Shown here: piece after piece, positions 1,885 through 55,607 of the stretch
Numbering within the stretch: the stretch's first letter is position 1
Layout of the letters: every line of letters starts with the position of its first letter
Assembly: GCA_022825065.1 (NCBI GenBank)
Contig: JAJDYR010000018.1
Coordinates: 33,606 to 97,605 of the forward strand
Origin: a bacterium
GTDB taxonomy: Bacteria > UBA8248
Length of the DNA stretch: 64,000 bases
Direction of reading: 5' to 3'
The notes under the pieces: generated by a model
The model's database searches: none
What the model was told of the DNA's origin: nothing
What the model saw: the letters and a program-made list of their open reading frames with translations, nothing else
Translations under genes and position numbers: made by a program

Positions 1885-3000
1885 TTAATCGTATTCCGCG
1901 AGGGCGGGCATGGGAGGCTCCAGGGTGATGGGCTCCGTATCCTCGAGCAGGGGCATGATCTCGCGTCCGAATATCTCCACCTCCTCGACGTGCGGCCAAC
2001 CTGAGAGGATGAACGTGTGAACGCCCACTTCCACGTATTCCTTGAGCGCCTTGGCGATCATGTCCGGCGTTCCCACCAGGCAGGCGCCCGGGCCCGCGCG
2101 AACGGTGTTCACGCCCATCCACAAGGTGTCGGTGATCCAGAGCGACTCGCCCTTCGCCAGTTCGTTGACGCGCGTCTGGCCTATGCTCTCCGATTTGGTC
2201 TTCAAGTCGGCCCAGACCTGCACGTTCGAGATGTCGCTCCCCTCGATGAGTGCTTGCGCGGCTTTTTTCGCCTCCTCTTTTGTCTCCCGGCAGAGGATGT
2301 GCATCCGGACGCCGAATTTTATCTGCTCTTCGCGGCCGACCTCCGCGGCGCGCCGCTTCATGTCGAGCGCGTCCTTGGCAATGGTCTCCACATCTACGGC
2401 GTACATCATGTGCACGTCGGAGAATTTCGCCCCCACCCGGCGGCCGGACTCCGAACTTCCGCCGAGATAGATGGGCGGCCAGGGTTTCGAGACGTGGATC
2501 GGGAAAAAGGCGGCTTCTTTGATGTCGAAATACTTTCCCTTGTAGGTGATGGGAGCGTCAGCGCTCCAGATGCGCGTGACGATCTCCAGAAACTCCTCCG
2601 TCCGGTCGTAGCGCTCATCGTGTGCGAGGTGGTCGCCGTAGCGCATCTGCTCCGCGTGGCTCGAGCCGGTGACGACGTTGAGCGTCAGGCGTCCGCCGGT
2701 GAGCGCGTCGAGCGTGTTCGCCGTCTGGGCGGCGAATACGGGGCTGGTGAGACCCGGTCGGAACGCCACGCAGAATTTGATTCTTTCGGTATGCTGCGCC
2801 ACGCCCGCGGCCACGAGCCAGGCGTCCAGGCAGTGGGTGCCGGTGGGCACCAGAAGGTTCACGAAACCGGCCCGCTCGGCGGCGCTCGCAACGCGCGAGA
2901 GGTACTCGATGGTGGGTTTTCGCTCAGGCACCCTGGTGTTGATCTTTTGGCCGTCACCCGCCCTGGCCGACGGGAGAAACCAGGCGTATTCTGTCCCCAT
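1885..3000 (-). CDS. LLM-class flavin-dependent oxidoreductase, copy 2 (tandem paralog)
   Basis: The ORF-track entry 1885..3087 has an N-terminal extension. The homologous start MGTEYAWF maps to ATG at 3000. Protein is ~93% identical to copy 1. Confidence 0.85.
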   Translation of the reverse strand: MGTEYAWFLPSARAGDGQKINTRVPERKPTIEYLSRVASAAERAGFVNLLVPTGTHCLDAWLVAAGVAQHTERIKFCVAFRPGLTSPVFAAQTANTLDALTGGRLTLNVVTGSSHAEQMRYGDHLAHDERYDRTEEFLEIVTRIWSADAPITYKGKYFDIKEAAFFPIHVSKPWPPIYLGGSSESGRRVGAKFSDVHMMYAVDVETIAKDALDMKRRAAEVGREEQIKFGVRMHILCRETKEEAKKAAQALIEGSDISNVQVWADLKTKSESIGQTRVNELAKGESLWITDTLWMGVNTVRAGPGACLVGTPDMIAKALKEYVEVGVHTFILSGWPHVEEVEIFGREIMPLLEDTEPITLEPPMPALAEYD

Positions 3001-3129
3001 ATCGAAAACCTCTGTGGTGAGAGATGCGCCCAGTATAGCCCAAAATGGAGGAGCATGTATCGGCTGCGCCTGTTTTTGAAAATACAAACAAGGCGAATGC
3101 CCGTCGACCTCAACACAGAGGCCGCGAAG

Positions 3130-4662
3130 TCAGACGGGCATCTGTCTGTCCAGTTGGCGGTACTGAACCGCCTCCGCCACATGCTGGGGGGAGATGTCTC
3201 TTTCCCCGGCCAGATCGCTGATGGTCCGCGCCACTTTCAGCACGCGGTGGTAAGCGCGCGCCGATAGACCCAGTTTCTCCACCGCCAGCTTGAGCAGGCG
3301 TCTTCCCTCGGCTTCGAGCTTGCAGTGCTCGTTGATGAGAGCGGGCCCCATGTGGGCGTTGGCGTAGGTGCCCGGGTGGTTCTGAAAGCGCTCTTTCTGG
3401 ATTTTCTGCGCTGAGAGAACGCGGTTTCTTATCGTCGCGGAACTCTCGCCCTCGGGGTCTTCGGCGAGTTCTTTCCACGGCACCCTGGGTACGCTGATGT
3501 GGATGTCGATGCGATCGAGGATCGGCCCCGAGATGCGCGAGCGGTACCGGGCCACCTGTTTGGGCGTGCAGGTGCATGCGCCGTCCGTTCGCAGGCCGCA
3601 TACGCACGGGTTCATCGCGGCGGTGAGCATGAACCGGGCCGGAAACGAGAGGCTCGCCTGCGCTCTGCTGATGGTGATCTTCCCGTCCTCGAGCGGACCA
3701 CGCAGGGATTCGAGCACGTTTTTCCGGAACTCGGGCAGTTCATCGAGGAACAACACGCCGTTGTGCGCGAGCGAGGCCTCGCCGGGCAGCGGGAGCGCGC
3801 CTCCGCCCACAAGGCCTGCGTCGCTGATGGTGTGGTGCGGGGCGCGGAAGGGTCGTTCCCGGATCAGGGAATCATGTTTCGTGAGTTTGCCGAGCACGCT
3901 CCACACCTGGCTGGTCTCGATGGCCTCATCGAGAGAGAGCGGAGGCAGTATGGTGGGGAATCTTTTCGCCAGCATGCTTTTTCCGCTGCCGGGAGGGCCT
4001 ATCATTAAAAGATTGTGCGAGCCCGCGGCCGCGACCTCGACGGCGCGTTTGGCCTGGTGCTGTCCCCGGATGTCCGAGAAATTGATTCTTTCGACCTTTT
4101 TTTTCTCTATGCCGTTTTTCTGGCAACACGCCGGGTGGATGTCGATTTCCTCCCGGATGAAACCCACCACCTGGGGAAGCGTGTGTACAGGATAGACCTC
4201 TAGCTTATCGACCACGGCGGCCTCGGGTGCGTTCTCCGCCGGAAGGACGAGGCCGCGCTTGCCCATCTTCTTGGCGAGAACGGCGATGTTGAGCGCTCCC
4301 CGGATGGGCCGCAAAGAACCATCCAGCGCCAGTTCACCCAGAAACAGGAGAGAATCCTCCATTTGAGAGCGTGAGTGAAATACGCCGTTCGCGCGCAGTA
4401 TCGAGAGCGCAATGGGCAAATCGAAGGCGCTGCCCTCCTTGCGGACGTCCGCCGGTGAGAGGCTGACGGTGATGCGCCCCATCGGGTAGATGAAGCCCGT
4501 GTTGAGGATGGCTGCACGAATCCTGTCCTTGCTCTCCTTAACGGCGGCGTCGGGCAAACCGACGGTGGCGTAATAGGGGAGACCCGGCGCGAGGTCGACC
4601 TCCACGTCGACGGGGTAGGCGTCTACGCCCAGTACGGCTGCTGCTTGGGTTTTGGCAAGCAT
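3130..4662 (-). CDS. comM: YifB/ComM-family Mg-chelatase-like AAA+ ATPase
   Basis: Walker A motif GPPGSGKS, Mg-chelatase ChlI-like core and C-terminal domain. Likely start is MLAKTQAA at 4662; the track ORF extends to 4695. Confidence 0.85.
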   Translation of the reverse strand: MLAKTQAAAVLGVDAYPVDVEVDLAPGLPYYATVGLPDAAVKESKDRIRAAILNTGFIYPMGRITVSLSPADVRKEGSAFDLPIALSILRANGVFHSRSQMEDSLLFLGELALDGSLRPIRGALNIAVLAKKMGKRGLVLPAENAPEAAVVDKLEVYPVHTLPQVVGFIREEIDIHPACCQKNGIEKKKVERINFSDIRGQHQAKRAVEVAAAGSHNLLMIGPPGSGKSMLAKRFPTILPPLSLDEAIETSQVWSVLGKLTKHDSLIRERPFRAPHHTISDAGLVGGGALPLPGEASLAHNGVLFLDELPEFRKNVLESLRGPLEDGKITISRAQASLSFPARFMLTAAMNPCVCGLRTDGACTCTPKQVARYRSRISGPILDRIDIHISVPRVPWKELAEDPEGESSATIRNRVLSAQKIQKERFQNHPGTYANAHMGPALINEHCKLEAEGRRLLKLAVEKLGLSARAYHRVLKVARTISDLAGERDISPQHVAEAVQYRQLDRQMPV

Positions 4663-9315: not shown

Positions 9316-9447
9316 TCAGGAGTCCTTTCTGGCGCATTCATTGGAAACGGGGGAAAGACAACAGTTTTTTGTTAATCATCTGAAGATGTATTATTATCCC
9401 CCCGGACGGGAATTTTCCCAAGCCGCGTCCAGGTTTCAGGAGAGATA

Positions 9448-10545
9448 ATGGCAACGGCATCGGAGAGAAAAGTACAGCTTACCCGGATGGTCAAGGCGGG
9501 CGGGTGAGGCTCGAAACTGGGTCCGGAGGACCTGCGAGAGGCTTTGAGCCAGTTTGAGCCGTTTTCGGACCCGAACCTGCTCTACGGAACGAACGCCGGG
9601 GACGACACGGGCGTGTATCGGCTCAGGGAGGACCTGGCCATCGTTCAGACGGTGGATTTTTTCACGCCCATCGTGGACGACCCTTACGCCTATGGCCAGA
9701 TAGCCGCGGCCAACGCGCTGAGCGATTGCTTCACCATGGGCGCGCAGCCGATCACCGGGCTGAACCTGGTGGGTTTTCCCTGCCATATCGGACTGGATGT
9801 GCTGGGGAGAATCCTGGCCGGTGGGGCGGACAAGATGCGCGAGGCGGGCGGCGTCATCGTGGGTGGCCACAGTGTGGACGACGTGGAACCGAAATACGGC
9901 ATCGCCGTCACGGGAACGGTTGACCCCAGGGAGATGGTGACGAACCAGGGAGCGAAACCCGGCGATAGGCTCGTTTTGACGAAAAAAATCGGCACCGGCG
10001 TCGTCACCAACGTGATGAAACAGGTGAACCCGGTGCTTAAGGCCGCGCGCGGCATTTTCGGGAAAAACGGCAAACTCCGCGACGGCGTTTTCGAAGAGGC
10101 GGTGGCCTCGATGCAGGCTCTGAATAAAATGGCGAGCGAGTGCATGATGCGGGTGGGCGTGAACGCCTGTACCGACGTGACCGGGTTCGGCCTCCTGGGC
10201 CATTTGCACAACGTCATGGAGGCCAGCGCCGCGCGCGCGCGGGTCGTGTTCTCCGATGTGCCCAGGTTCGATGACCTGCTTCCCCACGCCGTTGCTGGCA
10301 CGGCGGGTGGGGGCGACCGCAACCGCCTGTGGACAAAACCGTTCGTCGAGCCGAAACCGGGTGTCGATGAGGAGATGCTCGCCCTGCTCAACGACGCGCA
10401 GACCTCCGGCGGACTCGTTATCGCGGTGGATGCGGACAAGGCGGGGATATTATTGGACGAACTGCACGGCGCGGGCGTGGCTCCCGCGGCCGTATTCGGC
10501 GAGGTGTTGGATGGCCCGCCAGGGAGTATTGAGCTAGAGCCGTAA
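9448..10545 (+). CDS. selD: Selenide, water dikinase (selenophosphate synthetase) with in-frame UGA selenocysteine codon at 9505-9507
   Basis: ATG at 9448 is preceded by AGGAGA. Translation MATASERKVQLTRMVKAGG-U-GSKLGPEDLREALSQFEP... runs through the TGA in the same frame as track ORF 9544..10545. The TGA sits at the conserved GG(C/U)GxK active-site position of SelD. The rest of the protein is a typical PurM-like SelD. Confidence 0.8.
9508..9550 (+). promoter_or_regulatory. Putative bacterial SECIS stem-loop immediately 3' of the selD UGA
   Basis: ggctcgaaa...tttgagcc forms an outer stem. GGTCC-GGA-GGACC forms an apical hairpin within ~20 nt downstream of the UGA. G-rich apical loop as in bacterial SECIS elements. 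Confidence 0.45.
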
Positions 10546-10568: not shown

Positions 10569-11039
10569 TTGTTTATGGAAAAGGCCATGTTCGGCGCAGG
10601 TTGTTTCTGGGGAGTGGAGGCGGCGTTCCGCAAGGTGGAAGGCGTGGCGTACACCGCTGTGGGGTACTCGGGCGGCGCGAAGGACGAGCCCACCTACCGG
10701 GAGGTGTGTACGGGCCGTACGGGGCATGCGGAGGTCGTCTATCTGGAATTCGAACCCGAAAAAGTCTCCTATCAGGAGCTTTTGGAGCTTTTCTGGCGGA
10801 TTCACGACCCGTGCACGCTGAACCGCCAGGGGCCCGACGTGGGCACCCAATACCGCTCGGCGGTTTATTTCTTCTCGCCCGAGCAGGAGGCCGCGGCGCA
10901 GGCGTCCAGGGAGGAGCAGGAGGCGTCAGGGCGTCATTGGGGGCCGATAGTGACCGAGATTACGCAGGCGTCACGATTCTGGATGGGTGAGGACTACCAC
11001 CAGCAGTATGCCGAGAAGAACGGGATTATCTGCCACTAG
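10569..11039 (+). CDS. msrA: Peptide-methionine (S)-S-oxide reductase
   Basis: GAGCFWGVEAAF catalytic motif with Cys, not Sec; typical MsrA length. Confidence 0.9.
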   Translation: MFMEKAMFGAGCFWGVEAAFRKVEGVAYTAVGYSGGAKDEPTYREVCTGRTGHAEVVYLEFEPEKVSYQELLELFWRIHDPCTLNRQGPDVGTQYRSAVYFFSPEQEAAAQASREEQEASGRHWGPIVTEITQASRFWMGEDYHQQYAEKNGIICH

Positions 11040-11099
11040 CCGAATCCGAACGCATCAGCCCCCGGTGGCTCGTAGCCTGCCGGGGGCTTTTTTCCTGTT

Positions 11100-11939
11100 T
11101 TAGCCGTATTGCGCCACGACGCCGGCCAACTCGTCGAGTTTCGGCAGGATGACGTCTTCCTCCGCCGAGGGCAGGTGGAAGAGACTCCTCCCGACGCCCA
11201 GGTCCTCGAATTCGCGCAACTGCTCCAGGTCGGGGGGTGCAAAGAAAATGGTGACCGGAACGGGCGCACGCCCGGCCTTGGCGGCCATATCCTGAAGCTC
11301 CCGGATTCGCGGCGAGAGGACCAGACCCCCGCGCGGCAGCGGCATCCACTCGTCTCCGTAGCGAATCACGCGATCGAGCGTCCTCGCCCCGTTGCCGCCC
11401 ACGAGAATGGGCGGGTGCGGCTTCTGGATCGGCTTGGGCCAGGACCAGATGCGCTCGAAATCCACGAAATCGCCGTGATAGCTCGCCTCATCCTCCGTCC
11501 AGATGGCTTTCATCGCCTCGATGCGCTCGCGAAGGACGATCCAGCGCTTCTCGTAGTTCGTCCCGTGGTTTTCCATCTCCTCGCGGTTCCAGCCGCCGCC
11601 GATCCCGAAAAGCACGCGGCCGTTCGAGATGTGATCGAGCGTGGCCACCTCGTTGGCGAGGGTGATGGGGTCGCGTTCGATGACGAGGCAGATGCCCGTG
11701 CCGAGCATGATTTTTTCCGTCGCGGCCGCCGCGGCCCCTAACGCCACGAAAAGGTCGAGCGAGTGGGAGTATTCCTTAGGCAACTCCGCGCCGCCGGGCC
11801 AGGGGGTTTTCCGGCTCGCCGGAATGTGGGTGTGCTCCGGGAAGAAGATGGACTCGAAGCCCCGGTCTTCCGCCTCCTTGGCGACCCGGTGCGGGGCGAT
11901 GGAGTAATCGGTCGGGAAAATCGCGACGCCGAATTTCAT
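11100..11939 (-). CDS. LLM-class F420-dependent oxidoreductase-like protein
   Basis: 279 aa with the luciferase-like TIM-barrel (MKFGVAIFPTDYSI, GRVLFGIGGGW), resembling the F420-dependent LLM subfamily. Confidence 0.75.
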   Translation of the reverse strand: MKFGVAIFPTDYSIAPHRVAKEAEDRGFESIFFPEHTHIPASRKTPWPGGAELPKEYSHSLDLFVALGAAAAATEKIMLGTGICLVIERDPITLANEVATLDHISNGRVLFGIGGGWNREEMENHGTNYEKRWIVLRERIEAMKAIWTEDEASYHGDFVDFERIWSWPKPIQKPHPPILVGGNGARTLDRVIRYGDEWMPLPRGGLVLSPRIRELQDMAAKAGRAPVPVTIFFAPPDLEQLREFEDLGVGRSLFHLPSAEEDVILPKLDELAGVVAQYG

Positions 11940-14092: not shown

Positions 14093-14276
14093 GTCGAGTG
14101 GGGACGACCGTAGCGGACAGCCCCCGCGCCGCATGTGCAAGTTCGATTGCGCACCCCGCGGCGGGGAAGCTATGATGCAGCCGCCATCGCGCGCATCCGC
14201 ACACTCACTGTTTTCCGGAAGCGGTTCGGGGTTTTCCTGAAACAGCCCGCCGGATTGTTGAAATTCCACCTTCTAC

Positions 14277-15197
14277 ATGGAGAAAAAAATGGAAAAAAGA
14301 ACACTCGGACGCACGGGTCTCGAAGTCACTGTCATCGGCTTCGGCGCCATGACCATCGGCGGCGTCTTCGGCCCGGTGGACGACGGCGAGTCCAACCGCG
14401 CCCTGCACGCGGCCATCGATTCGGGCATGAACTTCATCGACACCTCAGACGCCTACGGCGCGGGCCACAGCGAGACCGTCATCGGCAAGTTCCTGAACGA
14501 ACGCGCCGACCGCGGCGACATCCTCATCTTCACCAAGGGCGGGAACGACATGTCGACGGGCGCGCGCAATTTCACGCCCGAGTACATCGCGGGCTGCCTG
14601 GAGGGGAGCCTGAAGCGCCTGGGGATGGACGTCATCGACTACTACCAGCTCCACAACCCCAACGTCGACAACATGGCGGCCGAGGACAGCTACGCGCTGC
14701 TGGAGAAAGCCAAGGACGACGGGAAGATCAAACACTGGGGCGTTTCGATCAACACGGTGGAGGAGTGCAACCTCGCCGCGGAGCAGAACAAGCCCTCCAC
14801 CATGCAGATGGAGTACAACGTCATCAGCCAGGAGGCGGCGCCCGCCTTCGCCCGCGCGAAAGCGGCGGACGTCGGCGTCATCTCCCGCGTGCCGCTCAAG
14901 CGGGGCTTTCTCTCCGGCCGCATCGACGAGGCGTTCGAGTTCGCCGAAGGCGACCGCAGAAAGGGCATCCTCTCGCCCGAGAACATCCGCAAGTTCCAGA
15001 CCCAGCTCGCCCGCACCCGCGAGGTGGCGGAGAATCTCGGAATTTCGGCGGCCCAGGCGGCCATCCGCTTCTGCGTCTCGAACGAGAACGTGAGCTGCGT
15101 GATTCCGGGCATCCGGACGCCCGAGCAATCCCGGCAGAACGCCGAATGCGGCGAATCCCTGCCCGCCGAGGCCGTGAGGAGGCTGCAGGAGGTATAG
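14277..15197 (+). CDS. Aldo/keto reductase
   Basis: 306 aa with AKR signatures (LGRTGLEVTVIGFGAM, IDTSDAYG, IPGIRTPEQ). Confidence 0.85.
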   Translation: MEKKMEKRTLGRTGLEVTVIGFGAMTIGGVFGPVDDGESNRALHAAIDSGMNFIDTSDAYGAGHSETVIGKFLNERADRGDILIFTKGGNDMSTGARNFTPEYIAGCLEGSLKRLGMDVIDYYQLHNPNVDNMAAEDSYALLEKAKDDGKIKHWGVSINTVEECNLAAEQNKPSTMQMEYNVISQEAAPAFARAKAADVGVISRVPLKRGFLSGRIDEAFEFAEGDRRKGILSPENIRKFQTQLARTREVAENLGISAAQAAIRFCVSNENVSCVIPGIRTPEQSRQNAECGESLPAEAVRRLQEV

Positions 15198-15250
15198 GTG
15201 GGGGGGGATGTTGGAAAAGACCGTATGGGGATTCTGCAGGTAGATGGTTT

Positions 15251-15278
15251 GTAGGGACAGGTCGCGACCTGTCCCTAC
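15251..15278. repeat. REP-like perfect 28-bp palindrome GTAGGGACAGGTCGCGACCTGTCCCTAC
   Basis: Self-complementary sequence with a GTAG head. Variants recur at 17154-17180, 19421-19448, 23147-23176 and 23989-24016. Confidence 0.7.
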
Positions 15279-15339
15279 GGGTGAAGGACAACCACGGGGG
15301 TTCGGAGGGAATCACGTTTCACTCGCTCTCCCTCGGCTT

Positions 15340-15532
15340 GAAAACCAACCCCCCCTACCCCCCCTTGACAGGGGGGTATAAAAAGGCGATGTGCCCTCGC
15401 TGGGTTGAGGGGGTTTTGCTTTTTCTCGCCCCCCCAGCACCACCATACTTGAATCATCGCGCCATTTTAGCTGAGGGGGGTTTGATTTTTCTTGCCCCCC
15501 TGTCAAGGGGGGGTAGGGGGGGTTGCCTTTAT
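15340..15532. repeat. MITE-like inverted-repeat element, copy B (with internal partial duplication)
   Basis: Same terminal inverted repeats as copy A, including the gaaaaccaacc left flank and ggttgcctttatc right flank. The spacer contains a duplicated gggttgagggggttttgc segment. Confidence 0.8.
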
Positions 15533-15587
15533 CTCCTGAGGAGGAGGAGTGAATTTCTTCTGCTGAGTCGCGGTTGAGCTTTGCCCT

Positions 15588-16992: not shown

Positions 16993-17194
16993 CATTCGCA
17001 CGAGAATCGGACGTTTCACGAGGTAGAGCGGCCATAGAGAGCCGCCCTGCTGCAGGTTCGTTTCGAAACGCGGGAGATGCGCAGCCGGACAGGGCAGGGG
17101 CCGCATTCATGAATCAATCGACGTTGACTCGCCGGTAAGTGAATTTGAATTTGGAGGGACAGATCGCGACCTGTCCCTACCCCTCTCTCGGCTT

Positions 17195-17330
17195 GAAAAC
17201 CAACCCCCCCTACCCCCCCTTGTCAGGGGGGCAAGAAAAAGCAAACCCCTCTCAGCATGGCGGGGACGCATCGCCTTTTTATACCCCCCTGTTAAGGGGG
17301 GGTAGGGGGGGTTGCCTTTATCCCCTGAGG
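17195..17330. repeat. MITE-like inverted-repeat element, copy C (spacer in opposite orientation)
   Basis: Same terminal inverted repeats. The spacer is the reverse complement of copy A's spacer. Confidence 0.8.
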
Positions 17331-17424
17331 ACTCGCTCTTGCCGGGGAGTTGTTCCGCCGGTAGGGTGGTGCGGACGTTCGGGGACGAACGAGGCGGCGA
17401 AGCCTCCCCGCGCGGAATGGAGGG

Positions 17425-19284
17425 ATGATGATGGAACGCAAGCCGGAATCCCGCCGCAAGTTGATAAAGGCGGGCGATTTCATTCGTGTCGGCGCACTGG
17501 ATGAGCTCAAGCGCGAGCGCATGAAAGTGGTGAGCGGCCGGCGCCATCCCATCCTCGTGGTGTATGAGGGGGGCCGCGTTCACGCGCTCGACAACCGCTG
17601 TCCCCATCTCGGCTTCCCGCTCCACCGGGGGTCGGTGGAGAACGGCATCCTCACCTGCCACTGGCATCACGCCCGCTTCGATCTCGAGAGCGGCTGCACC
17701 TTCGATCTGTGGGCCGACGACGTGCCGAGGGCCAGGGTCGAGGTGCGGGGCGATGCGGTCTGGGTCGCGGCCGATTGCAGTTATCCCGACGAGGGCGACT
17801 ACTGGCGCACGCGGCTCGGCGACGCCATGGCGCACGACCTGGACCTGGTGTCCGGGAAGGCGGTGCTCGGCCTGCTCGATCGATCCGTTGCAAGCGCCGA
17901 TATCCTCGCCGACGCCTTCCTGTTCGGCGCGCGGAACCGCGACGACTGGAGCGCCGGTTCCACGATTCTGGCCGCGCTGGCGAACGTGCTGCCGGCCCTC
18001 GATGAGGACGACCGCTATCTCGCGCTGTTCAAGGGCATCTCCGAGGTGGCCGGCGACTGCGCCGGCGAGATGCCGCGCCGCGACCGCAAGCCCCTGGCCG
18101 ATGCCGCGCCGTCGCGGGACACCATGCGGGGCTGGCTCCGGCACTGGTCCCTGGTGCGCCACCGCGACGGCGCGGAGCGCACCGTGCTCACCGCGATCGC
18201 CGCCGGCGCGACGCCCGCGGAACTCGCCGAACTCCTGGTCACCGCACAGACCGATCGCTACTACGCCGATCGCGGCCACAGCCTCGATTTCATCAACAAG
18301 GCGATGGAGTGCCTCGACGCCATCGGCTGGCGGCACGCCGGGGCCATCCTGCCCACGGTGGTCAAGACCATGGTGGCGGCGCGCGGCGAGGAGGAGGCGA
18401 ACGCCTGGCGCCACCCGCTCGATCTGGTGCCCCTCCTGGAGGCGGCCTTCGCCGAATTGCCTGAGCTTTTCAGGAAGGGGGGAGAGGCGAAGGGCGTCTG
18501 GCGGGATCACCGCGCGCTGGCCGGGGCCATCCTCGGCGAGGAGGCCGGGCCCATCATCGCCGCCTTGGGCGCCGCAGTCGCCGCCGGCGCCCGGCCGACG
18601 GACCTCTCCCGCGCGCTCGCCTATGCGGCGGCGATCCGCGTGGCGCGATTCGGCGCCTCGAACGAGTTTTCCGACTGGAACGCGGCGCTTCACGCCTTCA
18701 CCTACGCCAACGCGTTGCATCAGGCTCTGAAGCGCATCACCGCGGCGGGGGAGGCGCCGCCCGAGGCCCAGGCCAACGTGGTGCGCGGCGTGTTCCACGG
18801 CGCCATGGCGGTCTATACGAACCGCTTTCTCAACGTGCCCCCGGCCCGGCTGCCGGAGGAGGAGCCTGCGGCGCTGGCCCGGCTCCCCGGGGACGCGGCG
18901 GCGCTCCGCCAGGGCCTGCTCGATACGATGGACCGCCAGCAGCAGGTCCAGCCGGCGGCGCGGCTGGTCGCCCGGTATTTGGACCAGGGCCACGACCCCG
19001 CAGGCATCATCGCGACGCTCGGCCATGCGCTCCTGCGCGAGGACGCGAGCTTTCACATGTTCCAGATGTACGAGGCGGGCGTGCAGCAGTACCGCGAGTG
19101 GGCGGGTGAGCCCGAAGGCGGCCACATTCTGATCGCCGTGGCCCGCTTTCTCGCCGCGCATTCCCCGACCCAGCGCGCCCGCCACCAGACCGCGACCATC
19201 GCCCGCCGGCTGCATCGCGGGGAGAGCGTGCATGAGGGAGAGGGCGGGGACGCGGCGGACATGGAAAGAGAGCAGGCCGGGTAG
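17425..19284 (+). CDS. Rieske [2Fe-2S] domain protein with large C-terminal all-alpha domain of unknown function
   Basis: CPHLGFPLHRG...(17 aa)...CHWHHARF is the Rieske CxH-x17-CxxH motif. The gene is ~72% GC, clearly higher than its neighbours. The antisense ORF 17107..19380 (-) is judged spurious. Confidence 0.7.
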   Translation: MMMERKPESRRKLIKAGDFIRVGALDELKRERMKVVSGRRHPILVVYEGGRVHALDNRCPHLGFPLHRGSVENGILTCHWHHARFDLESGCTFDLWADDVPRARVEVRGDAVWVAADCSYPDEGDYWRTRLGDAMAHDLDLVSGKAVLGLLDRSVASADILADAFLFGARNRDDWSAGSTILAALANVLPALDEDDRYLALFKGISEVAGDCAGEMPRRDRKPLADAAPSRDTMRGWLRHWSLVRHRDGAERTVLTAIAAGATPAELAELLVTAQTDRYYADRGHSLDFINKAMECLDAIGWRHAGAILPTVVKTMVAARGEEEANAWRHPLDLVPLLEAAFAELPELFRKGGEAKGVWRDHRALAGAILGEEAGPIIAALGAAVAAGARPTDLSRALAYAAAIRVARFGASNEFSDWNAALHAFTYANALHQALKRITAAGEAPPEAQANVVRGVFHGAMAVYTNRFLNVPPARLPEEEPAALARLPGDAAALRQGLLDTMDRQQQVQPAARLVARYLDQGHDPAGIIATLGHALLREDASFHMFQMYEAGVQQYREWAGEPEGGHILIAVARFLAAHSPTQRARHQTATIARRLHRGESVHEGEGGDAADMEREQAG

Positions 19285-19292
19285 GGCAGACC

Positions 19293-19448
19293 GTAGGGAC
19301 AGGCCTCCGTGCCTGTCCGGGGCCGTGTATCCGTGTATTGAATCGATTGCAGAGGGGGACCCATAGGGCAGGGCGGCCACGGAGGGCCGCCCCTACGGGT
19401 TCGTTGTGATTTTGCGGTTTGTAGGGACAGGTCGCGACCTGTCCGGGG
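19293..19448. repeat. Composite REP-like cluster
   Basis: Units: gtagggacaggcctccgtgcctgtccgggg; agggcagggcggccacggagggccgcccctac; gtagggacaggtcgcgacctgtccgggg. Same composite architecture as the clusters flanking hicBA. Confidence 0.65.
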
Positions 19449-19464
19449 TTCGGCGTGTCCGCTG

Positions 19465-19600
19465 GATTGGTCGGAAAACCAACCCCCCCTACCCCCCCTT
19501 GTCAGGGGGGTATAAAAAGGCGATACGCCCCCGCAGGGTTGAGGGGGTTTTGCTTTTTCTTGCCCCCCTGTTAAGGGGGGGTAGGGGGGGTTGGTTTTCA
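19465..19600. repeat. MITE-like inverted-repeat element, copy D
   Basis: Terminal inverted repeats with GAAAACCAACCCCCCC / GGGGGGGTTGGTTTTC extensions. Confidence 0.8.
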
Positions 19601-19942
19601 AGGCGGGGAGGCGAGCGCGTCCGGTCAAGAAAAAAAGGGCCGACACCCCTCGAAGGGCTGCTTTCAGGGGTTGTTGAAAAACCCCCGAGTGTGGGAACTG
19701 CTGCGACACATTCCCCGAGGTGCAGGCCGAGTCGGGGTGTCGGCTGCTTTCATGAAACGCGAACAGGGGCTGCCCGTTGTTCCCGTTCCCGGCTCGAGGA
19801 CTCAAACTCACAGCAAGGAGCGGTACAGTTTGCTCTATCACGAGGGAAGCAACCAACGGGCAACCCCCTTTTCGCTCTTTCCTTCATCTCGCCTTGGACC
19901 CCGGGGCTAGAGCCCCGAGGCCGAAGGCATTCTGCTCTTCTT

Positions 19943-22498
19943 CTATTCCTTCATGTAGCGCGTGCCGAATGCGCCGGCTACTGCGCCATTAGAGAAATTC
20001 GAGTTGAACTCACCCACCAGAACTGGGGGCGGTGCTACACCAGTTCCAACAGCCTCACCATCACCGGAGAATGTCCCCGACCAAGTGGACGTATCAGATG
20101 CCATGCCCTTTGATGTTCCGGTAATGCTGGCAGAACTAAGAACACCAGATGCGGTCGCCATGGTTACTTCCCACTCGTTGGCCTCTCCGCCTGATAGTTC
20201 AAAGTCCGAAATTGTCCCATGCACGGAATTGTGTTTGTCTGCGGCCACGGAAGTCTCTGCCCCGAAATAAGCCGTAAGGGCTACGTCCGCCGTGAACGTT
20301 CCTGCAGACCTGGCATCAAGAGAATTATCTGGATTCACGGTGTTGTAAACGTATACTCCGTGAGCGCCACCTTCATATTTCGCGCTTCCAGCTACAACAC
20401 TTCCTATATTCGTATTAGCGTCAAGACTTGAACCAGCGAAAGTCTGAACGGCATCGTAGGTGGTTTTGCCATCCTTGACGGTTTTCATGAGCCAGAAGCC
20501 ATAGTGCAGGTAATCATCATCCGCTACGGATACCATGGCCCCTGCGTCTGGCTTGAACTGCCATTCGCCCGTAATAGTGGTTATTTTCCCGTCCGCGTCG
20601 GTGACTGCCGTACAAGCGGCATTCACACATTCGAATGTTCCAGCCGCACCATCAAAAGTTCCCCTAAACTCACCTTCATTTCTATTTTCGGTTGTAGTGT
20701 CATCAGCAGGCAAGTTTGTGGTAGTAGTAGGCGCACTTGATATTCTGCTGGAAGCTACCTTGCCCACATCCGCCGTTTCGTCCAATTCATATGTGGTGCG
20801 TTGGTCACCAGTCCTCTCTGGGTCAGCGTCTCCCACCGTAAGAGTATACACAGAACTAAACGGCTCTGATTCAGGCGCCTCAATATCTGTCATGACACTT
20901 ACTATTTCTGAAACTCCTTTTCCGTTATCACGGACATACTTACCGTCCATCATCACGAACTTGGGGTCATTTTTCAGTGGCAAGGCAGGGTCCGTAACTT
21001 CTACCGATACAGAACCACTTTTATGAGAAATCTTCAGGGTATATTGATCGGCGGCATCAGTATCATCGAATGCCGGCGAGGTGGCGTCAGGCGTGGCGGT
21101 TGATTCAGCCGTTATGGCATCCGCTTTAGTCTTGACCATTTCATTCATAGCCTTTTTCGCAGCCGCCGCTTCCTCCATTTCTTCTTCTTCACGCCTCTTT
21201 TCTTCAGCTACTCTATCGGCCTCTTCCTTGGCGGCTACAACCATTCCGGCGAAACGCTCAACCGCAGCTTTTGCGGTCTCGGCTTTAGCCTGGGCGGCTT
21301 CCGCGTCAGCCGATGTAGTGGCGGCCGCGGCTTCATCGTTCGCGGCTTTCGCGTCCGCGACGGCATCTTCCGCCCGCGCGTAAGAGGCTTCGTCAGCAGC
21401 TTTCTGCTCATCCGTGAGGGCCGCAAGCGCCGCCTTCGCGTCCATGTACGCCTGCATGGCGGCCCCCTGCGCGGTCGAGAGCGCGGTCGCTTCCATGTGC
21501 GCGACCGTCACCATGCTAGCGTATTTCCTGGCATCGGCCAGCGCGCTTTCGGCGGCCATCTGGGCGGCTTCCGCATCCGCCGCTGTTTCGGCATTTTCCG
21601 CCCTTACTTTCGCGGCAAGCGCGTCCTCGAGAGCTCTCATGGCTATGTTGTAAGAAACGGAGTCGGCATCGCCTTGGCCCGCGATTGCATCCAGTGCAGC
21701 CTGCGCGGCATTAGCGGCCACTTCCGCGGCACCACGAGCGACTCTTATAGCGGACATTTCGGCCGCCAGATTGTCGGCAGCCGTTTTCGCGTCCGCTACC
21801 ATGTCGGCGTATCTCTGGACATCTGCGAGCGCGGCTTCCACGTCCGCCTGGGCAGCCTTCGCGGCTTCCGATGTGGTTGCCGCGTTCGCCATTGCGAGTG
21901 CTTCTTGAGCGGCCTCGTTCGCGACCTTGGCTCTCACGTATGAGTCGATGTCATGGGCTTTATTCGCCTCTGCGTCCGCCAATAAACTGGCCGCCATATC
22001 GGCCGCAGTCTTTGCGGCTTGCTTGGCGGTATCGAGCGCCATGGCTTCTTGCTGCCGATCCATTTCTGCCTGATCGGCCGCGGTCTTCGCGTCCGCTACC
22101 ATGCCGGCATACTTTTCAGCATCCGCTTGGGCCGCTTCTGCTTTCGCCTGCTCCGCCTTCGCAGCTTCCGATGTGGTTGCGGCTGCGGCCGCGTCACTCG
22201 CGGCTTTCGCGGCCGTGAGAGCGATTCGGGCTGCAGCATATGAGTCTGGATCGACACTCGCATCCGCCATCACGCCATCGACCGCCGTCATGGCAGCCGT
22301 ATACGCCGCCTTGGCGGCATTCTGCGCGGCTTCGAGAGCGGCGGCCTCGGCCGCGATCTCCTCATCCGTCGGGCCGGTCATCGGCGGTTCTGCCGTTCCG
22401 CTACCTCCGCCGCCGCCGCAGCCCGCCAGCGTCAGCGCGAACACGGCCGCCAGCGCGAAAGCGTAGAACTTGTGAATATACTTGTGTTTGAACTTCAT
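19943..22498 (-). CDS. Surface lipoprotein with Ala-rich internally repeated coiled-coil region and TbpB-like C-terminal beta-barrel domain
   Basis: Lipobox LTLAGC after the signal peptide. ~4 internal repeats of ~100 aa (TTSEAAKA..EKYAGMVADAKTAAD), also visible as DNA repeats at ~21700-21850 and ~22020-22160. C-terminal 300 aa is Gly/Ser/Thr-rich and ends ...GEFNSNFSNGAVAGAFGTRYMKE, like TbpB/fHbp-type handle-barrel lipoprotein C-termini. The 3' third of the gene is ~50% GC against ~65% locally. Confidence 0.75.
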   Translation of the reverse strand: MKFKHKYIHKFYAFALAAVFALTLAGCGGGGGSGTAEPPMTGPTDEEIAAEAAALEAAQNAAKAAYTAAMTAVDGVMADASVDPDSYAAARIALTAAKAASDAAAAATTSEAAKAEQAKAEAAQADAEKYAGMVADAKTAADQAEMDRQQEAMALDTAKQAAKTAADMAASLLADAEANKAHDIDSYVRAKVANEAAQEALAMANAATTSEAAKAAQADVEAALADVQRYADMVADAKTAADNLAAEMSAIRVARGAAEVAANAAQAALDAIAGQGDADSVSYNIAMRALEDALAAKVRAENAETAADAEAAQMAAESALADARKYASMVTVAHMEATALSTAQGAAMQAYMDAKAALAALTDEQKAADEASYARAEDAVADAKAANDEAAAATTSADAEAAQAKAETAKAAVERFAGMVVAAKEEADRVAEEKRREEEEMEEAAAAKKAMNEMVKTKADAITAESTATPDATSPAFDDTDAADQYTLKISHKSGSVSVEVTDPALPLKNDPKFVMMDGKYVRDNGKGVSEIVSVMTDIEAPESEPFSSVYTLTVGDADPERTGDQRTTYELDETADVGKVASSRISSAPTTTTNLPADDTTTENRNEGEFRGTFDGAAGTFECVNAACTAVTDADGKITTITGEWQFKPDAGAMVSVADDDYLHYGFWLMKTVKDGKTTYDAVQTFAGSSLDANTNIGSVVAGSAKYEGGAHGVYVYNTVNPDNSLDARSAGTFTADVALTAYFGAETSVAADKHNSVHGTISDFELSGGEANEWEVTMATASGVLSSASITGTSKGMASDTSTWSGTFSGDGEAVGTGVAPPPVLVGEFNSNFSNGAVAGAFGTRYMKE

Positions 22499-26080: not shown

Positions 26081-27058
26081 ATGAAATTTTCTGAGATTGC
26101 GGATTCAATCGCTTCCGAGATGAAGGAAGTGGAAGAGGCGATTCACGCGAATTTCCATTCGGACGTCGTTCTGATACCCGATGTGAGTGATTACCTCATC
26201 GGCTCCGGCGGCAAGAGGATCCGGCCGATGCTCCTGGTGCTCGTCGCCAAGGCGTGCGGCTACCGGGGCTCCCGCGCCACGACGCTGGGCTGCGTGGTGG
26301 AGTACATCCACACGGCCACGCTCCTGCACGACGACGTGGTGGACGACGCGCAGATGAGGCGGGGCAACCCCTCCGCCAACGCGAAGTGGAACAACGAGAC
26401 GAGCGTGCTGGTGGGCGATTTCCTGTTCGCCAAGAGTTTCTCGCTCATGTCCGCGGACGCCGATATGCGGATCATCGAGACCATGAGCGAGGCCTGCACC
26501 CTGCTCTCCGAAGGCGAGGTGCTCCAGCTGGTCAACATGTACAACCTCAAGCTCACCGAAGAGGAATACCTCGACGTCATCTACCGCAAGACGGCGGCCC
26601 TCATCGCCGCGAGCTGCCGCGTCGGCGCCCTGATCCCCGACAGCCCGCCCACGATCACGAACGCGCTCCACCAGTTCGGCGTCCAGATCGGCTACGCTTT
26701 CCAGCTGGTCGATGACGCCCTCGATTACATGGGTGATGCGCAAAGGATCGGAAAATCCGTGGGCGAGGACCTGCGCGAGGGGAACGTGACGCTGCCTTTG
26801 CTCCGGGTCTGCGCCCAGGCAACGGAGGCGGAATTCGAGCGGTTGAACCACCTGGTGGTTCACGCGGACGAGATCCGGGCGGAGGACCTGGACGACGTTC
26901 TCGAGTTGATGAACAAGTACGGCGCGGTGGACTACACCCTCGACAGGGCGCGGGGATACGTGGAGGCGGGCAAGGCGGCGCTCTCCATTCTGCCGGATTC
27001 CTTCCATGTCGACGTATTGCGCGACGTCGCCGACTACATTGTCGATCGCGACAATTAG
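26081..27058 (+). CDS. ispB: Polyprenyl diphosphate synthase (octaprenyl/heptaprenyl-diphosphate synthase-like)
   Basis: Both aspartate-rich motifs are present (LLHDDVVDD and FQLVDDALDYMGD). Start chosen at ATG 26081 with a GGAGA RBS; the track ORF has a 30-aa upstream extension. Confidence 0.85.
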   Translation: MKFSEIADSIASEMKEVEEAIHANFHSDVVLIPDVSDYLIGSGGKRIRPMLLVLVAKACGYRGSRATTLGCVVEYIHTATLLHDDVVDDAQMRRGNPSANAKWNNETSVLVGDFLFAKSFSLMSADADMRIIETMSEACTLLSEGEVLQLVNMYNLKLTEEEYLDVIYRKTAALIAASCRVGALIPDSPPTITNALHQFGVQIGYAFQLVDDALDYMGDAQRIGKSVGEDLREGNVTLPLLRVCAQATEAEFERLNHLVVHADEIRAEDLDDVLELMNKYGAVDYTLDRARGYVEAGKAALSILPDSFHVDVLRDVADYIVDRDN

Positions 27059-27077
27059 CCTTCCGCAGGTCCGGTTC

Positions 27078-27683
27078 TTGCGACAGCTTCGGCATTTCAT
27101 TCTGGCTTCGGGCTCCCCGCGCAGAAAACGGCTGCTGGAAGGTGCAGGCCTTGTTTTCGACGTCGTCATAGCGCCCCCCGACGTGGAGGAGGAGGTCGCG
27201 CCGGGGCTCGGGGCGGAAGAGGAGGCCATGCGCCGCGCACAGGCGAAGGCGGGTTGCGTGGCGGATATGAATCCGGGCGCGCTCGTTCTCGGCGCCGATA
27301 CGGTGGTCGTCCTGGATGGGGAAATTTTGGGAAAGCCGTCGGGCCTGGACGACGCCGCGCGCATGCTGGGGTTGCTTTCGGGGCGGACGCACGAGGTGAT
27401 CACCGCGTTCACCCTCCTGGGAGCGGATTCCCGCCACGAGGAGGCGGTATCGACGAAGGTGTCCTTCAGGGAGCTTGACGAGGAGGCCATCGCGCGCTAC
27501 GCCGAGAGCGGCGAACCCATGGACAAGGCGGGTGCGTACGCGATTCAGGGGATGGGCGGGAGCCTCGTGGACAGGGTGGAGGGAAGCTACACCAACGTCG
27601 TGGGCCTGCCCGTCCCGGAAGTGTTGGATATGCTCATGAGGTGCGGCGTCGTGACGGACGCGCCTCTTCACTCGGCGATTTGA
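27078..27683 (+). CDS. maf: Maf-like nucleoside triphosphate pyrophosphatase
   Basis: ILASGSPRRKRLL ... GKP ... AGAYAIQG Maf signatures. TTG start at 27078 avoids overlap with ispB. Confidence 0.8.
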   Translation: MRQLRHFILASGSPRRKRLLEGAGLVFDVVIAPPDVEEEVAPGLGAEEEAMRRAQAKAGCVADMNPGALVLGADTVVVLDGEILGKPSGLDDAARMLGLLSGRTHEVITAFTLLGADSRHEEAVSTKVSFRELDEEAIARYAESGEPMDKAGAYAIQGMGGSLVDRVEGSYTNVVGLPVPEVLDMLMRCGVVTDAPLHSAI

Positions 27684-37239: not shown

Positions 37240-40191
37240 TTGAGCAAGCTGGCCTTGATGATCGATCTGGAGCGGTGCTTCGGCTGCAAGAGCTGTGAGG
37301 CGGCCTGCAAGCAGGAGCACAGGCTGGGCCCCGGCGAATACCGGAACAAGGTCGTCTGGCTGGGGGACGCTTCCACGGGGACGCCTGATTTCCTCACGCT
37401 GACGTGCCAGCATTGCGAGCGCCCCGCTTGTCTCAGGGCCTGTCCCGTTCATCCCAAGGCGATTACCAAAGACCCCGATACCGGCGTGGTGGAGGTTCAC
37501 GAGGCGCTTTGCACGGGTTGCGGGGAATGCGTCATGGCGTGTCCCTACAGCGCGATGGGCTATGACGCGCAGGGGCATCATTCGGTGAAGTGCGACCTCT
37601 GCCCCGACAGACGGGAGAAGAATCTGGAGCCCGCCTGCGCCGAGATTTGCCCGGGCTACGCCATCTCGTTCGGCGAGAGGGAGAACCTCCTCGAAAAGGC
37701 CCATCAGGAGGGTCGGAGCCTTCGGGATCACGATCATTTTCTCCTGAAGCCGCAGACGATTTATCTGGAGAAAATCGCGAGAGAAAACGGCCGCGTAAAC
37801 GGCGCGGAAAATTCAAGTTCGTCTGAAAGCCCGAATCGGCCCAAGTTCGTGGAATCCCCCGAAGCGAACGGCGTTTTCCGGGAGAAAGGCCCCGATTTCC
37901 CCTACCTGCACGACAAGAACGCGCTCAAGGCGGACCGGGTGGAGCCGGGGGGATGTAATTTCTGCTTCAACTGCTGCACCGCCAAGTTCCATTTCCAGGG
38001 CGATAAGCTCATCAACGTGACGGGGAACGATGAAGACCCCGTCCTGGACGGAAAAATCTGCCCCAAGGCGCAGTTCACGCTGCAGCTCCACCACAACGAA
38101 CACCGCCTGCAATATCCCTTGAAGCGCGTCGGCCGCCGGGGCGAAAATGCGTTCGAGCGCATCACCTGGGAGCAGGCGCTCGATGAGATCGCCGCGAAAC
38201 TGGGGGTCCTGAAGGAAAAATGGGGCACGGAGGCGCTGGCGATGTTCGTCGGGACCCGAACGGGCCTGATTACCCAGAAAGGCTATGCGCGGCTGTTCAG
38301 CCAGATGTGGGGAACGCCGAACCTCCAGGGGACGGACCCGTTCTGCGCGGCGGGCAAAGTGGTCGCCTACGAGGTGACGCACGGGATCAACGGCAACGGG
38401 AACAGCTACACGTCCGAGGATATCGGCAGCGCCGGGATGTATCTCTACGTCGGGGACAACCAGGCGGAGACGCGGCCAGTCTACTTCGGCAAGGTGAACG
38501 ACTGGCGCATCAGGAACAAGACCCCGATGGTCGTGGTGGATCCCAGGTACACCGCCACGGCGAGCAAGGCGGACAAATGGCTCGCCATCCGCCCCGGCAC
38601 CGACATGGCGCTCGGCCTCGCCATGGCGCACCATATTCTCTCTGAAAATCTGCACGATGCGCGTTTCTGCGACGAATGGGTGCTGGGCTGGGAGCGCTGG
38701 CGCGATTTCATATTCTCGAAGGGCTATTCCCCCGATTGGGCGGAAGCCATCACCGGCATAGCAGCGGATGAGATTCGCGCGCTCGCCGGGGACGTGGCCA
38801 AAGCGGACGGCTGCGTCATCTTCGGGAGCCGGGGACTCAACCAGCACACCAACTCGGTGCAGACCAACCGGACGTTCATGTTCGTCGCCGCGATAACGGG
38901 GAACTGGGGCCGAAAGGGCGGCGCCTACGTGAACATGACGGCGGGGCCGCCCATCGCCGCCAACGCGCCGGAGAACAGACGGGCAGAGATTCAGAAGCCC
39001 ATGGTGCGCAGGAGCCCGGCCGGCTGGCTGAGCGCCATGCGGGAGGGCAAGCCGTACCCGATTAAAGGCCTCATCACGTGCAACAACCCGCTCGCGCAGT
39101 GGCCGGGCCAGGACGAGGCGCGCGCGGCCTTCAAAGCGCTCGACCTCATCGTCCACATCGAGTTGTTCGCGAACGAGACCTCGGCCTATGCGGATTACGT
39201 GCTGCCCGCGGCGGGCGGGATCGAGAAAGGCGAGCTGGGCCGCACGAACGACGACAGGAGAGTCGTCTGGATCGACAAGATGATCGACCCGCCGGGAGAG
39301 GCGAAGCCCGACGGGTGGATATGGACGGAACTCGGGCGGCGCCTGGGGTTCGGCGACGTCATGAAAGAGGAATACAAGGACCCGGGCAAGTTCTGGGACG
39401 AGATGTGCATCGACAACGATTTCCTGCGGGGCGTGACGCAGAAACGGCTCCACTCGGTCCCCTACCGGTGGGTGCGGTTCCCCGTCGCGAGCGAGGACGC
39501 CCCCGAGCAGGAGACGCTTTATCTCGAAGGAACGACCGCCACGGGGCAGCCCGAGGGCAAGCGCTTCCCCACGCCGAGCGGGCGGCTCGAGTTCTGGACG
39601 GAAGCGTTGGAGGAAAAATTCAAGAAAGTAGGACTCTCGGCGCTGCCGGAATTTTACAGCGAGAAGGAGAATCTCCTGGGGTTGCCGTATCTCGAATATG
39701 AACACGAAGATGATGATCTGGAAGTCATCTCCCCCTTCTCCAAGGCGCCGACGGGTTCCCGCGCCGCCAGAATCGTCCAGCCGGATGGGGAAAACCCAAG
39801 TGATGCGCTTCGCGCGCAAGGCTTCGGGACGACGCTGATAACGGGCCGCCCGCCCGCGCCGCATTTCCACAGCTGGACGCATTATTTCTGGCAGGCGCAG
39901 GAGATGTGGCCCGACCTCTATTGCCAGATACATCCCGAAAAAGCGGGGGAACTGGGAATCGAAGACGGGGAGAAAGTCCGGGTGGAGACGGCGCACGGCG
40001 CCATCGAGGCGATGGCCTGGGTGAATGCAGGGATAAGGGAAGACGCGGTGTACGTCCCCATCGGCTGGGGGGAGCGCCAGCCCTACCATCCCTGGCGGTC
40101 GGTGAATTTCCTGACGGACATCGCGCAGCGCGACCCGTGCTCGGACCAGACGAATCTGAAGAGCTTGCTGTGTAGAATCTCAAGGGCGTGA
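37240..40191 (+). CDS. Molybdopterin (bis-MGD) oxidoreductase catalytic subunit with N-terminally fused four-cluster [4Fe-4S] ferredoxin domain; no Tat signal
   Basis: Residues 1-~160 carry four Cys clusters (CFGCKSCEAAC; CQHCERPACLRACP; CTGCGECVMACP; CDLCPDRREKNLEPACAEICP) like FdnH/PsrB-type beta subunits. From ~residue 230 the GGCNFCFNCCTAKFHF cluster and the molybdopterin oxidoreductase / MGD-binding domains follow in one continuous 983-aa ORF. No twin-arginine leader and no in-frame TGA. Confidence 0.8.
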   Translation: MSKLALMIDLERCFGCKSCEAACKQEHRLGPGEYRNKVVWLGDASTGTPDFLTLTCQHCERPACLRACPVHPKAITKDPDTGVVEVHEALCTGCGECVMACPYSAMGYDAQGHHSVKCDLCPDRREKNLEPACAEICPGYAISFGERENLLEKAHQEGRSLRDHDHFLLKPQTIYLEKIARENGRVNGAENSSSSESPNRPKFVESPEANGVFREKGPDFPYLHDKNALKADRVEPGGCNFCFNCCTAKFHFQGDKLINVTGNDEDPVLDGKICPKAQFTLQLHHNEHRLQYPLKRVGRRGENAFERITWEQALDEIAAKLGVLKEKWGTEALAMFVGTRTGLITQKGYARLFSQMWGTPNLQGTDPFCAAGKVVAYEVTHGINGNGNSYTSEDIGSAGMYLYVGDNQAETRPVYFGKVNDWRIRNKTPMVVVDPRYTATASKADKWLAIRPGTDMALGLAMAHHILSENLHDARFCDEWVLGWERWRDFIFSKGYSPDWAEAITGIAADEIRALAGDVAKADGCVIFGSRGLNQHTNSVQTNRTFMFVAAITGNWGRKGGAYVNMTAGPPIAANAPENRRAEIQKPMVRRSPAGWLSAMREGKPYPIKGLITCNNPLAQWPGQDEARAAFKALDLIVHIELFANETSAYADYVLPAAGGIEKGELGRTNDDRRVVWIDKMIDPPGEAKPDGWIWTELGRRLGFGDVMKEEYKDPGKFWDEMCIDNDFLRGVTQKRLHSVPYRWVRFPVASEDAPEQETLYLEGTTATGQPEGKRFPTPSGRLEFWTEALEEKFKKVGLSALPEFYSEKENLLGLPYLEYEHEDDDLEVISPFSKAPTGSRAARIVQPDGENPSDALRAQGFGTTLITGRPPAPHFHSWTHYFWQAQEMWPDLYCQIHPEKAGELGIEDGEKVRVETAHGAIEAMAWVNAGIREDAVYVPIGWGERQPYHPWRSVNFLTDIAQRDPCSDQTNLKSLLCRISRA

Positions 40192-41127: not shown

Positions 41128-41511
41128 TCAGCTTGCGCTTCTCGATTTGAGCGCGTTTTGGAGCACCCGCCGGGCGAGGGTGGCGCAGTGGCGTTTGTGG
41201 GTGGGGAGGCCGCCGACGCTTTCGGCGATCTCCTCCGCGGTAATTTCTCCAAGCTCCTCCGCGGTCTTTCCGCGCACCATGTCCGTCAGGGAACTCATGG
41301 CGGCGGTGATCGCCCCGCAGCCGAGAATCCGGATTTTGGCGTCGGTGACCGCCTCGCCCTCGAATTTGAGGTAAAGCGTCACCTCATCGCCGCAGGCGGG
41401 GTTCGTCCCGCTCCCCTCGGCGTCCGCGTCTTCGATGACGCCGATGTTGCGCGGGTCGGCGATGTGGCGGAGCACCGTCTCGTTATAGTGGTAGTCGTCT
41501 CGTGGGGCCAA
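41128..41511 (-). CDS. nifU: Fe-S cluster assembly scaffold, NifU/IscU N-terminal-type
   Basis: Three conserved Cys (NPACGDE, ILGCGAI, HKRHCATLA) in 127 aa. Confidence 0.85.
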   Translation of the reverse strand: MAPRDDYHYNETVLRHIADPRNIGVIEDADAEGSGTNPACGDEVTLYLKFEGEAVTDAKIRILGCGAITAAMSSLTDMVRGKTAEELGEITAEEIAESVGGLPTHKRHCATLARRVLQNALKSRSAS

Positions 41512-41520
41512 GGTTTCTTC

Positions 41521-43924: not shown

Positions 43925-44115
43925 CTATCCGCTCACTTTTGAATGAAATGCAGTCCATGAATCAGACGGATTTTCGCATATGGAGCCATGCCCTTGCGAC
44001 TACGTTTCATCGGCCCATATAATGCGGCGAGTCCAAAAGAAAGTTCCGCCGACAACGGCTTCATTTCGAATCGAGGCATCGTCAATTTTCGCTTCCACAA
44101 TGCAGGGGTGATGAA

Positions 44116-45087: not shown

Positions 45088-45133
45088 TCGCCAGATGCAA
45101 TAAGTCCGCCGCCGGCGCGCCCGATGATGAAGG

Positions 45134-55077: not shown

Positions 55078-55097
55078 TCTCATTTTTGAGGGTTTCG

Positions 55098-55496
55098 ATG
55101 GAATTTGGTTTTGATCATATTCACTACGTTTGCACAGACGTGAAGGCGTTTGCCGAGTATTTCGAAAACGTGTTCGACGCTGAAATGATACGCTACGACG
55201 AAGACTTCAAGGGCTCGCCCAACGCGGCGGTGAAAGTCGGCCGCCTGGTGATATTCGCGCGCGGCATCAGACCCGGGGAGACGCCGGATTCCGTGGGGCC
55301 GGAACTGGTTCAGGGCCTGGATCATTTCGGGTTCGGCGTTCCGGATGTGGAAGCCGCCGTCGAGTGGCTGAGGGGCAAAGGGGCGGAAATTATGGTGGAG
55401 CCCGTGCGCCGCGGGGTTGGCGGGCGCATGATCGCCTATGTCAGAGGACCCGGCAATATCCGCATCGAGTTGTGCGAGAACCCCGAGGCTCTTTAA
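55098..55496 (+). CDS. VOC-family protein (glyoxalase/methylmalonyl-CoA epimerase-like)
   Basis: FDHIHYVCTDV...GLDHFGFGVPDVEAAVEWL paired beta-alpha-beta-beta-beta modules. Confidence 0.7.
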   Translation: MEFGFDHIHYVCTDVKAFAEYFENVFDAEMIRYDEDFKGSPNAAVKVGRLVIFARGIRPGETPDSVGPELVQGLDHFGFGVPDVEAAVEWLRGKGAEIMVEPVRRGVGGRMIAYVRGPGNIRIELCENPEAL

Positions 55497-55607
55497 TATA
55501 CGCTCGCATCCTGAAAACCGGAGAAGCGGAGGCGCAACAGCGGGCTTTCTTGACATGATGATTCGCGACTGAATCGCCAGGACAATTACCCTTGGAGGAT
55601 AAAACCG

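Follow-up and report, generated by a model that had tools for sequence, protein, structure and literature searches.

Does the in-frame UGA near the 5' end of selD in this bacterium end a short reading frame, or is it read as selenocysteine (Sec)? The question arises on a stretch of 64,000 nt, the whole of which was analyzed and is called the window here. A sequence-only reading had proposed that selD starts at an ATG preceded by AGGAGA, that it carries an in-frame TGA at 9505-9507, and that it is split in the ORF track. This was confirmed, the ORF list giving only 9544..10545. Our analysis makes it very probable that selD encodes a Sec-containing selenophosphate synthetase. In this reading, translation would start at ATG 9448, and Sec would be inserted in place of termination at the UGA, which occupies the catalytic site within the glycine-rich loop at the N-terminus (the equivalent of E. 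coli Cys17). The gene would be co-transcribed with a Cys-type msrA. The features of the locus are collected in Table 1.

Table 1. Features of the selD locus, in window coordinates
Feature	Position	Strand	Description
Sigma-70-like promoter candidate, TTGTTA-17-TATTAT	9369..9397	+	Consensus scan, 9/12 matches, weak; putative role
Shine-Dalgarno (SD) sequence, AGGAGA	9438..9443	+	4 nt 5' of ATG 9448-9450; read from sequence
selD CDS, selenide, water dikinase	9448..10545	+	365 codons including the predicted Sec codon; TAA 10543-10545
In-frame UGA, predicted to be read as selenocysteine	9505..9507	+	Residue 20, motif GG-U-GSK
Possible lower SECIS helix	9508..9550	+	9508-9513 with 9545-9550; in MFE fold of 9505-9552
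Predicted bSECIS apical stem-loop, CUGGGUCCGGAGGACCUG	9517..9534	+	Stem G9519-U9533 to C9524-G9528; loop GGA 9525-9527
Public-call selD fragment	9544..10545	+	TTG start, 333 aa, MSQFEP...; start lies after the SECIS
msrA, peptide-methionine (S)-S-oxide reductase, Cys form	10575..11039	+	TIGR00401, 204 bits, cutoff 108
Intrinsic-terminator-like hairpin and T-run	11057..11098	+	12 bp, 9 G-C; hairpin 11057-11088; consensus scan

The selD frame and its product

The frame opened by ATG 9448 runs MATASERKVQLTRMVKAGG-TGA-GSKLGPEDLREAL... and continues without a shift through to the TAA, with this TGA as the only one in frame. With the TGA set to Cys, the full product scored 338.3 bits against the profile HMM TIGR00476 (selD; cutoff 125). 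The match spans residues 11-331 of 365 and profile positions 2-310 of 311, and it begins upstream of the TGA. Among solved SelD structures, 2YYE/2ZOD (E 5e-62) and 3U0O (E 8e-56) matched the product, and profile and structures alike align from residues 5-11 onward, across the TGA. In the alignment to 3U0O, U20 of the product corresponds to Cys17 and K23 to Lys20 of E. coli SelD, the two residues known to be catalytic in that enzyme. The earlier claim that the TGA sits at the catalytic Cys/Sec site of SelD is borne out by this correspondence and by the Actinobacterial homologs described below. In precomputed Pfam annotation, the AIRS N- and C-terminal domains (PF00586 and PF02769) are assigned to the public call, an identical protein of 333 aa, and to every close homolog. 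Judged by family, loop residues and domains, the product is a full-length SelD, and selenophosphate synthesis is its predicted function.

Among bacterial selenoprotein families, SelD is the second most widespread (PMC13188914, PMC1794560), with its Sec located in an N-terminal loop (PMC13188914). The bacterial Sec-containing SelD proteins, such as the Aquifex aeolicus enzyme (PDB 2YYE/2ZOD) and that of Acetomicrobium mobile (BSepDB), share TIGR00476 and the G-U-x-x-K loop with the window product, and their genes, like selD of the window, carry a coding-region SECIS directly after the UGA. Only the lineage, the loop base (GGA here versus GGC) and the conserved downstream msrA set the window gene apart from them. 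Cys-type SelD proteins (E. coli, 3U0O; Actinobacterial loci L049-L077) have the same fold and catalytic loop, but their genes carry TGC or TGT in place of the TGA and need no SECIS.

A scan of a genome collection for selD returned 77 loci. The relatives compared here (n = 30) are MAGs labelled Nitrospinota, Tectomicrobia or 'bacterium', with selD nucleotide identities of 73-93%. Together with the window they make up an alignment of 31 sequences, 28 of which (the window and 27 relatives) are full-length. The Sec codon is TGA in 30/30 relatives, the sequences are collinear across it, and the upstream peptide is conserved as well. A stop at this codon was also found in loci from SAR202/Dehalococcoidia, Acidobacteriota, Acidimicrobiia, Clostridia and Aquificales.

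The hairpin downstream of the UGA

The sequence-only reading had described a two-tier candidate SECIS behind the UGA, with an apical hairpin on an outer stem. In the apical hairpin, GGUCC (9520-9524) pairs with GGACC (9528-9532) around the GGA loop (9525-9527). The upper stem comprises 6 bp (9519-9524/9528-9533), or 7 bp counting U9518-G9534, and the spacing from UGA to loop is 17 nt (9508-9524). We used the bSECIS consensus (bSECISearch, Zhang and Gladyshev 2005, summarised in PMC13188914 Fig. 2) as the reference model. It describes a loop of 3-9 nt with G in either of its first two positions, an upper stem of 4-16 bp, a distance of 16-37 nt from the UGA and an MFE of −7.5 kcal/mol or lower (PMC13188914). 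The hairpin lies within all of these limits, with a loop of the minimum size allowed (3 nt).

The outcome of folding depended on the segment chosen. The MFE of 9505-9552 is −19.7 kcal/mol, and its fold consists of the apical hairpin and the outer pairing; the 18-nt minihelix 9517-9534 alone reaches −8.2 kcal/mol. Over 9500-9560, the segment suggested for folding by the earlier reading, the MFE structure differs and is without the apical hairpin. The folding z scores, −1.7 for 9505-9552 and −2.3 for 9500-9560, are not significant alone and are decisive neither way. Because folding energy alone is not significant, the case for the hairpin rests on comparative evidence.

Positions 9517-9533 (CUGGGUCCGGAGGACCU) are invariant in 31/31 sequences. 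Next to the hairpin, the codons for Gly, Ser, Lys, Arg, Glu, Ala and Leu show free variation at their synonymous sites across the same 31 sequences. Codons 24-28 are degenerate yet fully invariant, five in a row, when selD as a whole has only 12 such codons out of 353, and the hairpin codons are the lowest synonymous-entropy window of selD. Synonymous divergence estimated after Nei-Gojobori (pS) is 0.026 for codons 24-29, compared with 0.588 for the flanking codons and 0.448 gene-wide. Within the close clade, no covariation was found in the apical hairpin, whose stem never varies. In the Acidobacteriota SelD genes (L032 and L033), the hairpin reads GGGUCU-GGA-AGACCU at the same offset, with a compensatory change from C-G to U-A at the loop-closing pair. 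These comparisons support the apical tier as a putative bSECIS, under RNA-level constraint beyond the protein code and presumably bound by SelB.

The outer tier of the earlier proposal did not hold up in the same way. The stem ggcucg (9508-9513)/ugagcc (9545-9550) starts at the first nucleotide after the UGA and is 89% paired across relatives; two of its pairs are broken in 6-7 of the 28 sequences, and no compensatory changes were found among these. A competing partner for the outer stem, at 9556-9560, is equally conserved, with its bases fixed by amino-acid conservation. The lower helix may form, and the comparison lends it no support. In the standard model, the lower SECIS helix is unwound as the ribosome approaches (PMC13188914).

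Searching Rfam with the whole window gave no match at the gathering score, and the segment 9400-9650, searched at E up to 10, gave a chance miRNA match only. Bacterial SECIS elements are described as being without conserved sequence features (PMC13326102), so the missing match does not weigh against a SECIS.

The Sec-SelD genes of SAR202/Dehalococcoidia (L034-L055) have the UGA at the same codon and a G-initiated apical loop downstream, but their hairpin differs: it reads CUCGCCCA-GGUUU-UGGGCGGG and lies about 24-45 nt after the UGA, with its loop at a distance of 32 nt. Across phyla, then, SelD genes do not share one uniform SECIS, and not all of these elements are homologous. The loops of this group vary (GGUUU, GGUAU and GGUGU), and L043 has a stem change.

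A further site in selD, 9637-9655, ranks second in the gene for synonymous constraint (codons 64-69; CAG ACG GTG invariant). It holds a hairpin, CCAUCGU-UCAG-ACGGUGG, which is followed by U6 in the window, was flagged by a terminator scan and occurs in nearly all 31 sequences. We considered the hairpin at 9638-9655 as a conserved Sec-coupled attenuator or terminator and rejected it, the U-run being broken in 24/31 sequences (UUUCUUC) with no compensatory change. From the alignment, a conserved attenuator at 9637-9655 appears unlikely.

How the UGA is read

Genes for Sec decoding were sought around selD. ARAGORN found no tRNA in the 64-kb window, tRNA-Sec included, and no tRNA-Sec in 53 related loci, where only a tRNA-Arg and a tRNA-Pro were detected, both in L070. 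NCBIfam scans found neither selA nor selB among 20 of the larger window ORFs, and neither was found in the flanks of the related loci. Four scans of the window revealed no second UGA-interrupted gene, selD standing alone. A TGA read-through listing was too noisy at 61% GC, and a CxxU/UxxC motif scan gave out-of-frame noise only; a codon-usage scan returned selD and four ordinary adjacent same-frame gene pairs, and a relaxed scan combined with a bSECIS filter returned selD only.

Several other ORFs of the window are of note. On the plus strand, 37240-40191 is an uninterrupted ORF of 983 aa with no in-frame UGA. Its N-terminus (residues ~3-190) resembles ferredoxin-type 4Fe-4S subunits such as DmsB, FdhB or HybA, and is fused to a molybdopterin oxidoreductase domain whose best partial matches are formate dehydrogenase alpha and PhsA, all below cutoffs. 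On the minus strand, 41128-42690 encodes a cysteine desulfurase of the NifS type, which scores 522 bits with TIGR03402 (narrowly below the cutoff of 531) and also matches SclA (selenocysteine lyase) weakly. A NifU/IscU-like ORF follows in the same frame after its TGA, an ordinary adjacent pair ~31 kb from selD. NifS-type cysteine desulfurases have been proposed as selenium donors for SelD. For the long ORFs (425-851 aa) in 14135-15577, 17107-22498, 26105-27490, 43933-45210 and 53368-56738, no NCBIfam match was obtained at the thresholds used; with a GC content of 61%, some of these may not be real genes or may have been read from the wrong strand. At another site, a coding-potential scan favoured a minus-strand gene at 1885-3129 over the plus-strand ORF 2017-3267.

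BSepDB places three GTDB-UBA8248 MAGs among the ten bacteria richest in selenoprotein genes. FO_M_Nitrospinota_01, the source of relative L017 and classed as GTDB UBA8248, has 54 selenoprotein genes, and sponge bin107 has 48 (BSepDB). By COG counts, the sponge MAG bin107 has SelA = 2, SelB = 1 and SelD = 1, and Nitrospina gracilis has none (PMC5649159 Table S4). Similarity of selD and synteny suggest that the window shares its lineage with the UBA8248 MAGs, and we infer that selA, selB and selC lie elsewhere in the source genome.

The UGA might instead be decoded without Sec machinery, through suppression by a near-cognate tRNA (Trp or Cys) or because the whole lineage has reassigned the codon, and the fact that no Sec machinery was found within the 64-kb window would agree with this. 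However, half of the window's family-supported genes (7 of 14) terminate in UGA, which is thus an ordinary stop, not a reassigned codon. The UGA of selD lies exactly at the Cys site of its homologs and is directly followed by a hairpin of canonical bSECIS geometry under strong nucleotide-level constraint, and related MAGs carry SelA, SelB and ~50 selenoprotein genes. We consider decoding of this kind very improbable.

Mechanical ORF finding and public gene calls both give exactly a 333-aa ORF, and the real protein could be this N-terminally truncated form, starting at TTG 9544 or at another downstream start, with the TGA as the stop of a short ORF or within non-coding sequence. The closest database proteins (P0001-P0007; L078 and L079) are 333-aa fragments without the catalytic Sec loop, and P0008, named SelD by NCBI, starts MGPEDL and is also without it. 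The exact window protein was called as 333 aa on the metagenome contigs SRR16351696_6453 and KELL22-1_SAMN22237330_METAG-scaffold_862 (ERZ23491399). Sec-SelD proteins are frequently misannotated (BSepDB).

What speaks against truncation is the state of the upstream codons. In the 28 full-length sequences, dN/dS is 0.149 for codons 2-19 versus 0.139 for codons 21-365, and ATG, GTG or TTG stands at the start position, with a purine-rich SD upstream, in 28/28. The upstream 18 codons are under purifying selection like the gene body and have a start codon in place; the upstream part should therefore be translated. The doubt voiced beforehand, that the upstream codons might be unconserved and a downstream start better supported, was in this way settled in favour of the upstream start. 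A truncated SelD would also be without the catalytic Cys/Sec-Lys loop, and the SelD profile and structures align across the TGA, as described above. That the 333-aa form is the real protein is hardly credible.

The TGA could also have arisen in a Cys-type selD as a pseudogene lesion, or through faulty sequencing or assembly, since a single base change (TGC or TGT to TGA) would suffice. The comparative data effectively refute this: the TGA is present in the 30 independent assemblies and is also seen in exact copies carried by other metagenome contigs, in a gene without other lesions and under strong purifying selection on both sides of the codon.

Taken together, the conservation of the TGA, the dN/dS values, the conserved start and SD and the use of UGA as an ordinary stop rule out a start further downstream, a pseudogene, a misassembly and a genome-wide reassignment. 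Sec insertion is the predicted fate of the selD UGA. As the selenium donor needed for the Sec residue of SelD is itself made by SelD, the enzyme would depend on its own product for its synthesis.

The selD-msrA unit and its significance

Downstream of selD, msrA follows on the same strand after a gap of 29 nt from the selD stop, with GAGGAG preceding its ATG; its motif GCFWG is that of the Cys form. The strongest terminator-like hairpin of the region falls after the msrA stop and not between the two genes, and the next gene (11100-11939) lies on the opposite strand. In 22/30 relatives, msrA is directly downstream of selD. The two genes look like a conserved two-gene operon, in agreement with the operon with a Cys-type MsrA that the earlier reading had proposed.

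Among the more distant marine relatives, L018, L020, L021 and L023 keep the Sec codon and an identical SECIS. No msrA was found downstream of selD in these four loci, and convergent genes follow selD in L018 and L021, the two with ORFs listed. The selD-msrA operon is specific to the closer clade and one Tectomicrobia-labelled MAG, L022.

The minihelix GGGUCC-GGN-GGACCU coincides with the codons of the conserved peptide K-L-G-P-x-D-L and is found at the 17-nt offset in the window lineage, in Acidobacteriota (with the compensatory U-A) and in Synergistota. The A. mobile SelD SECIS (UUGGGUCCGGCGGACCUC, an example in the BSepDB paper) has the same stem and 17-nt offset as CUGGGUCCGGAGGACCUG in the window. 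We wondered whether the minihelix may be an ancient SelD-specific SECIS that predates the phyla, is co-constrained by peptide and RNA and is not convergent, and whether it gates msrA expression in the clade; this is conceivable, and we regard it as rather doubtful. If true, SECIS gating would tie the antioxidant repair enzyme MsrA to selenium supply.

A Sec-SelD with a SECIS is already known, and the lineage is already catalogued as selenoprotein-rich. The practical value of the finding lies in annotation, as pipelines unaware of UGA recoding misjudge the presence and function of SelD, and the selenoprotein counts, in these genomes. The gene probably marks its source organism as Sec-decoding, and other apparently split ORFs in the genome therefore merit re-examination.
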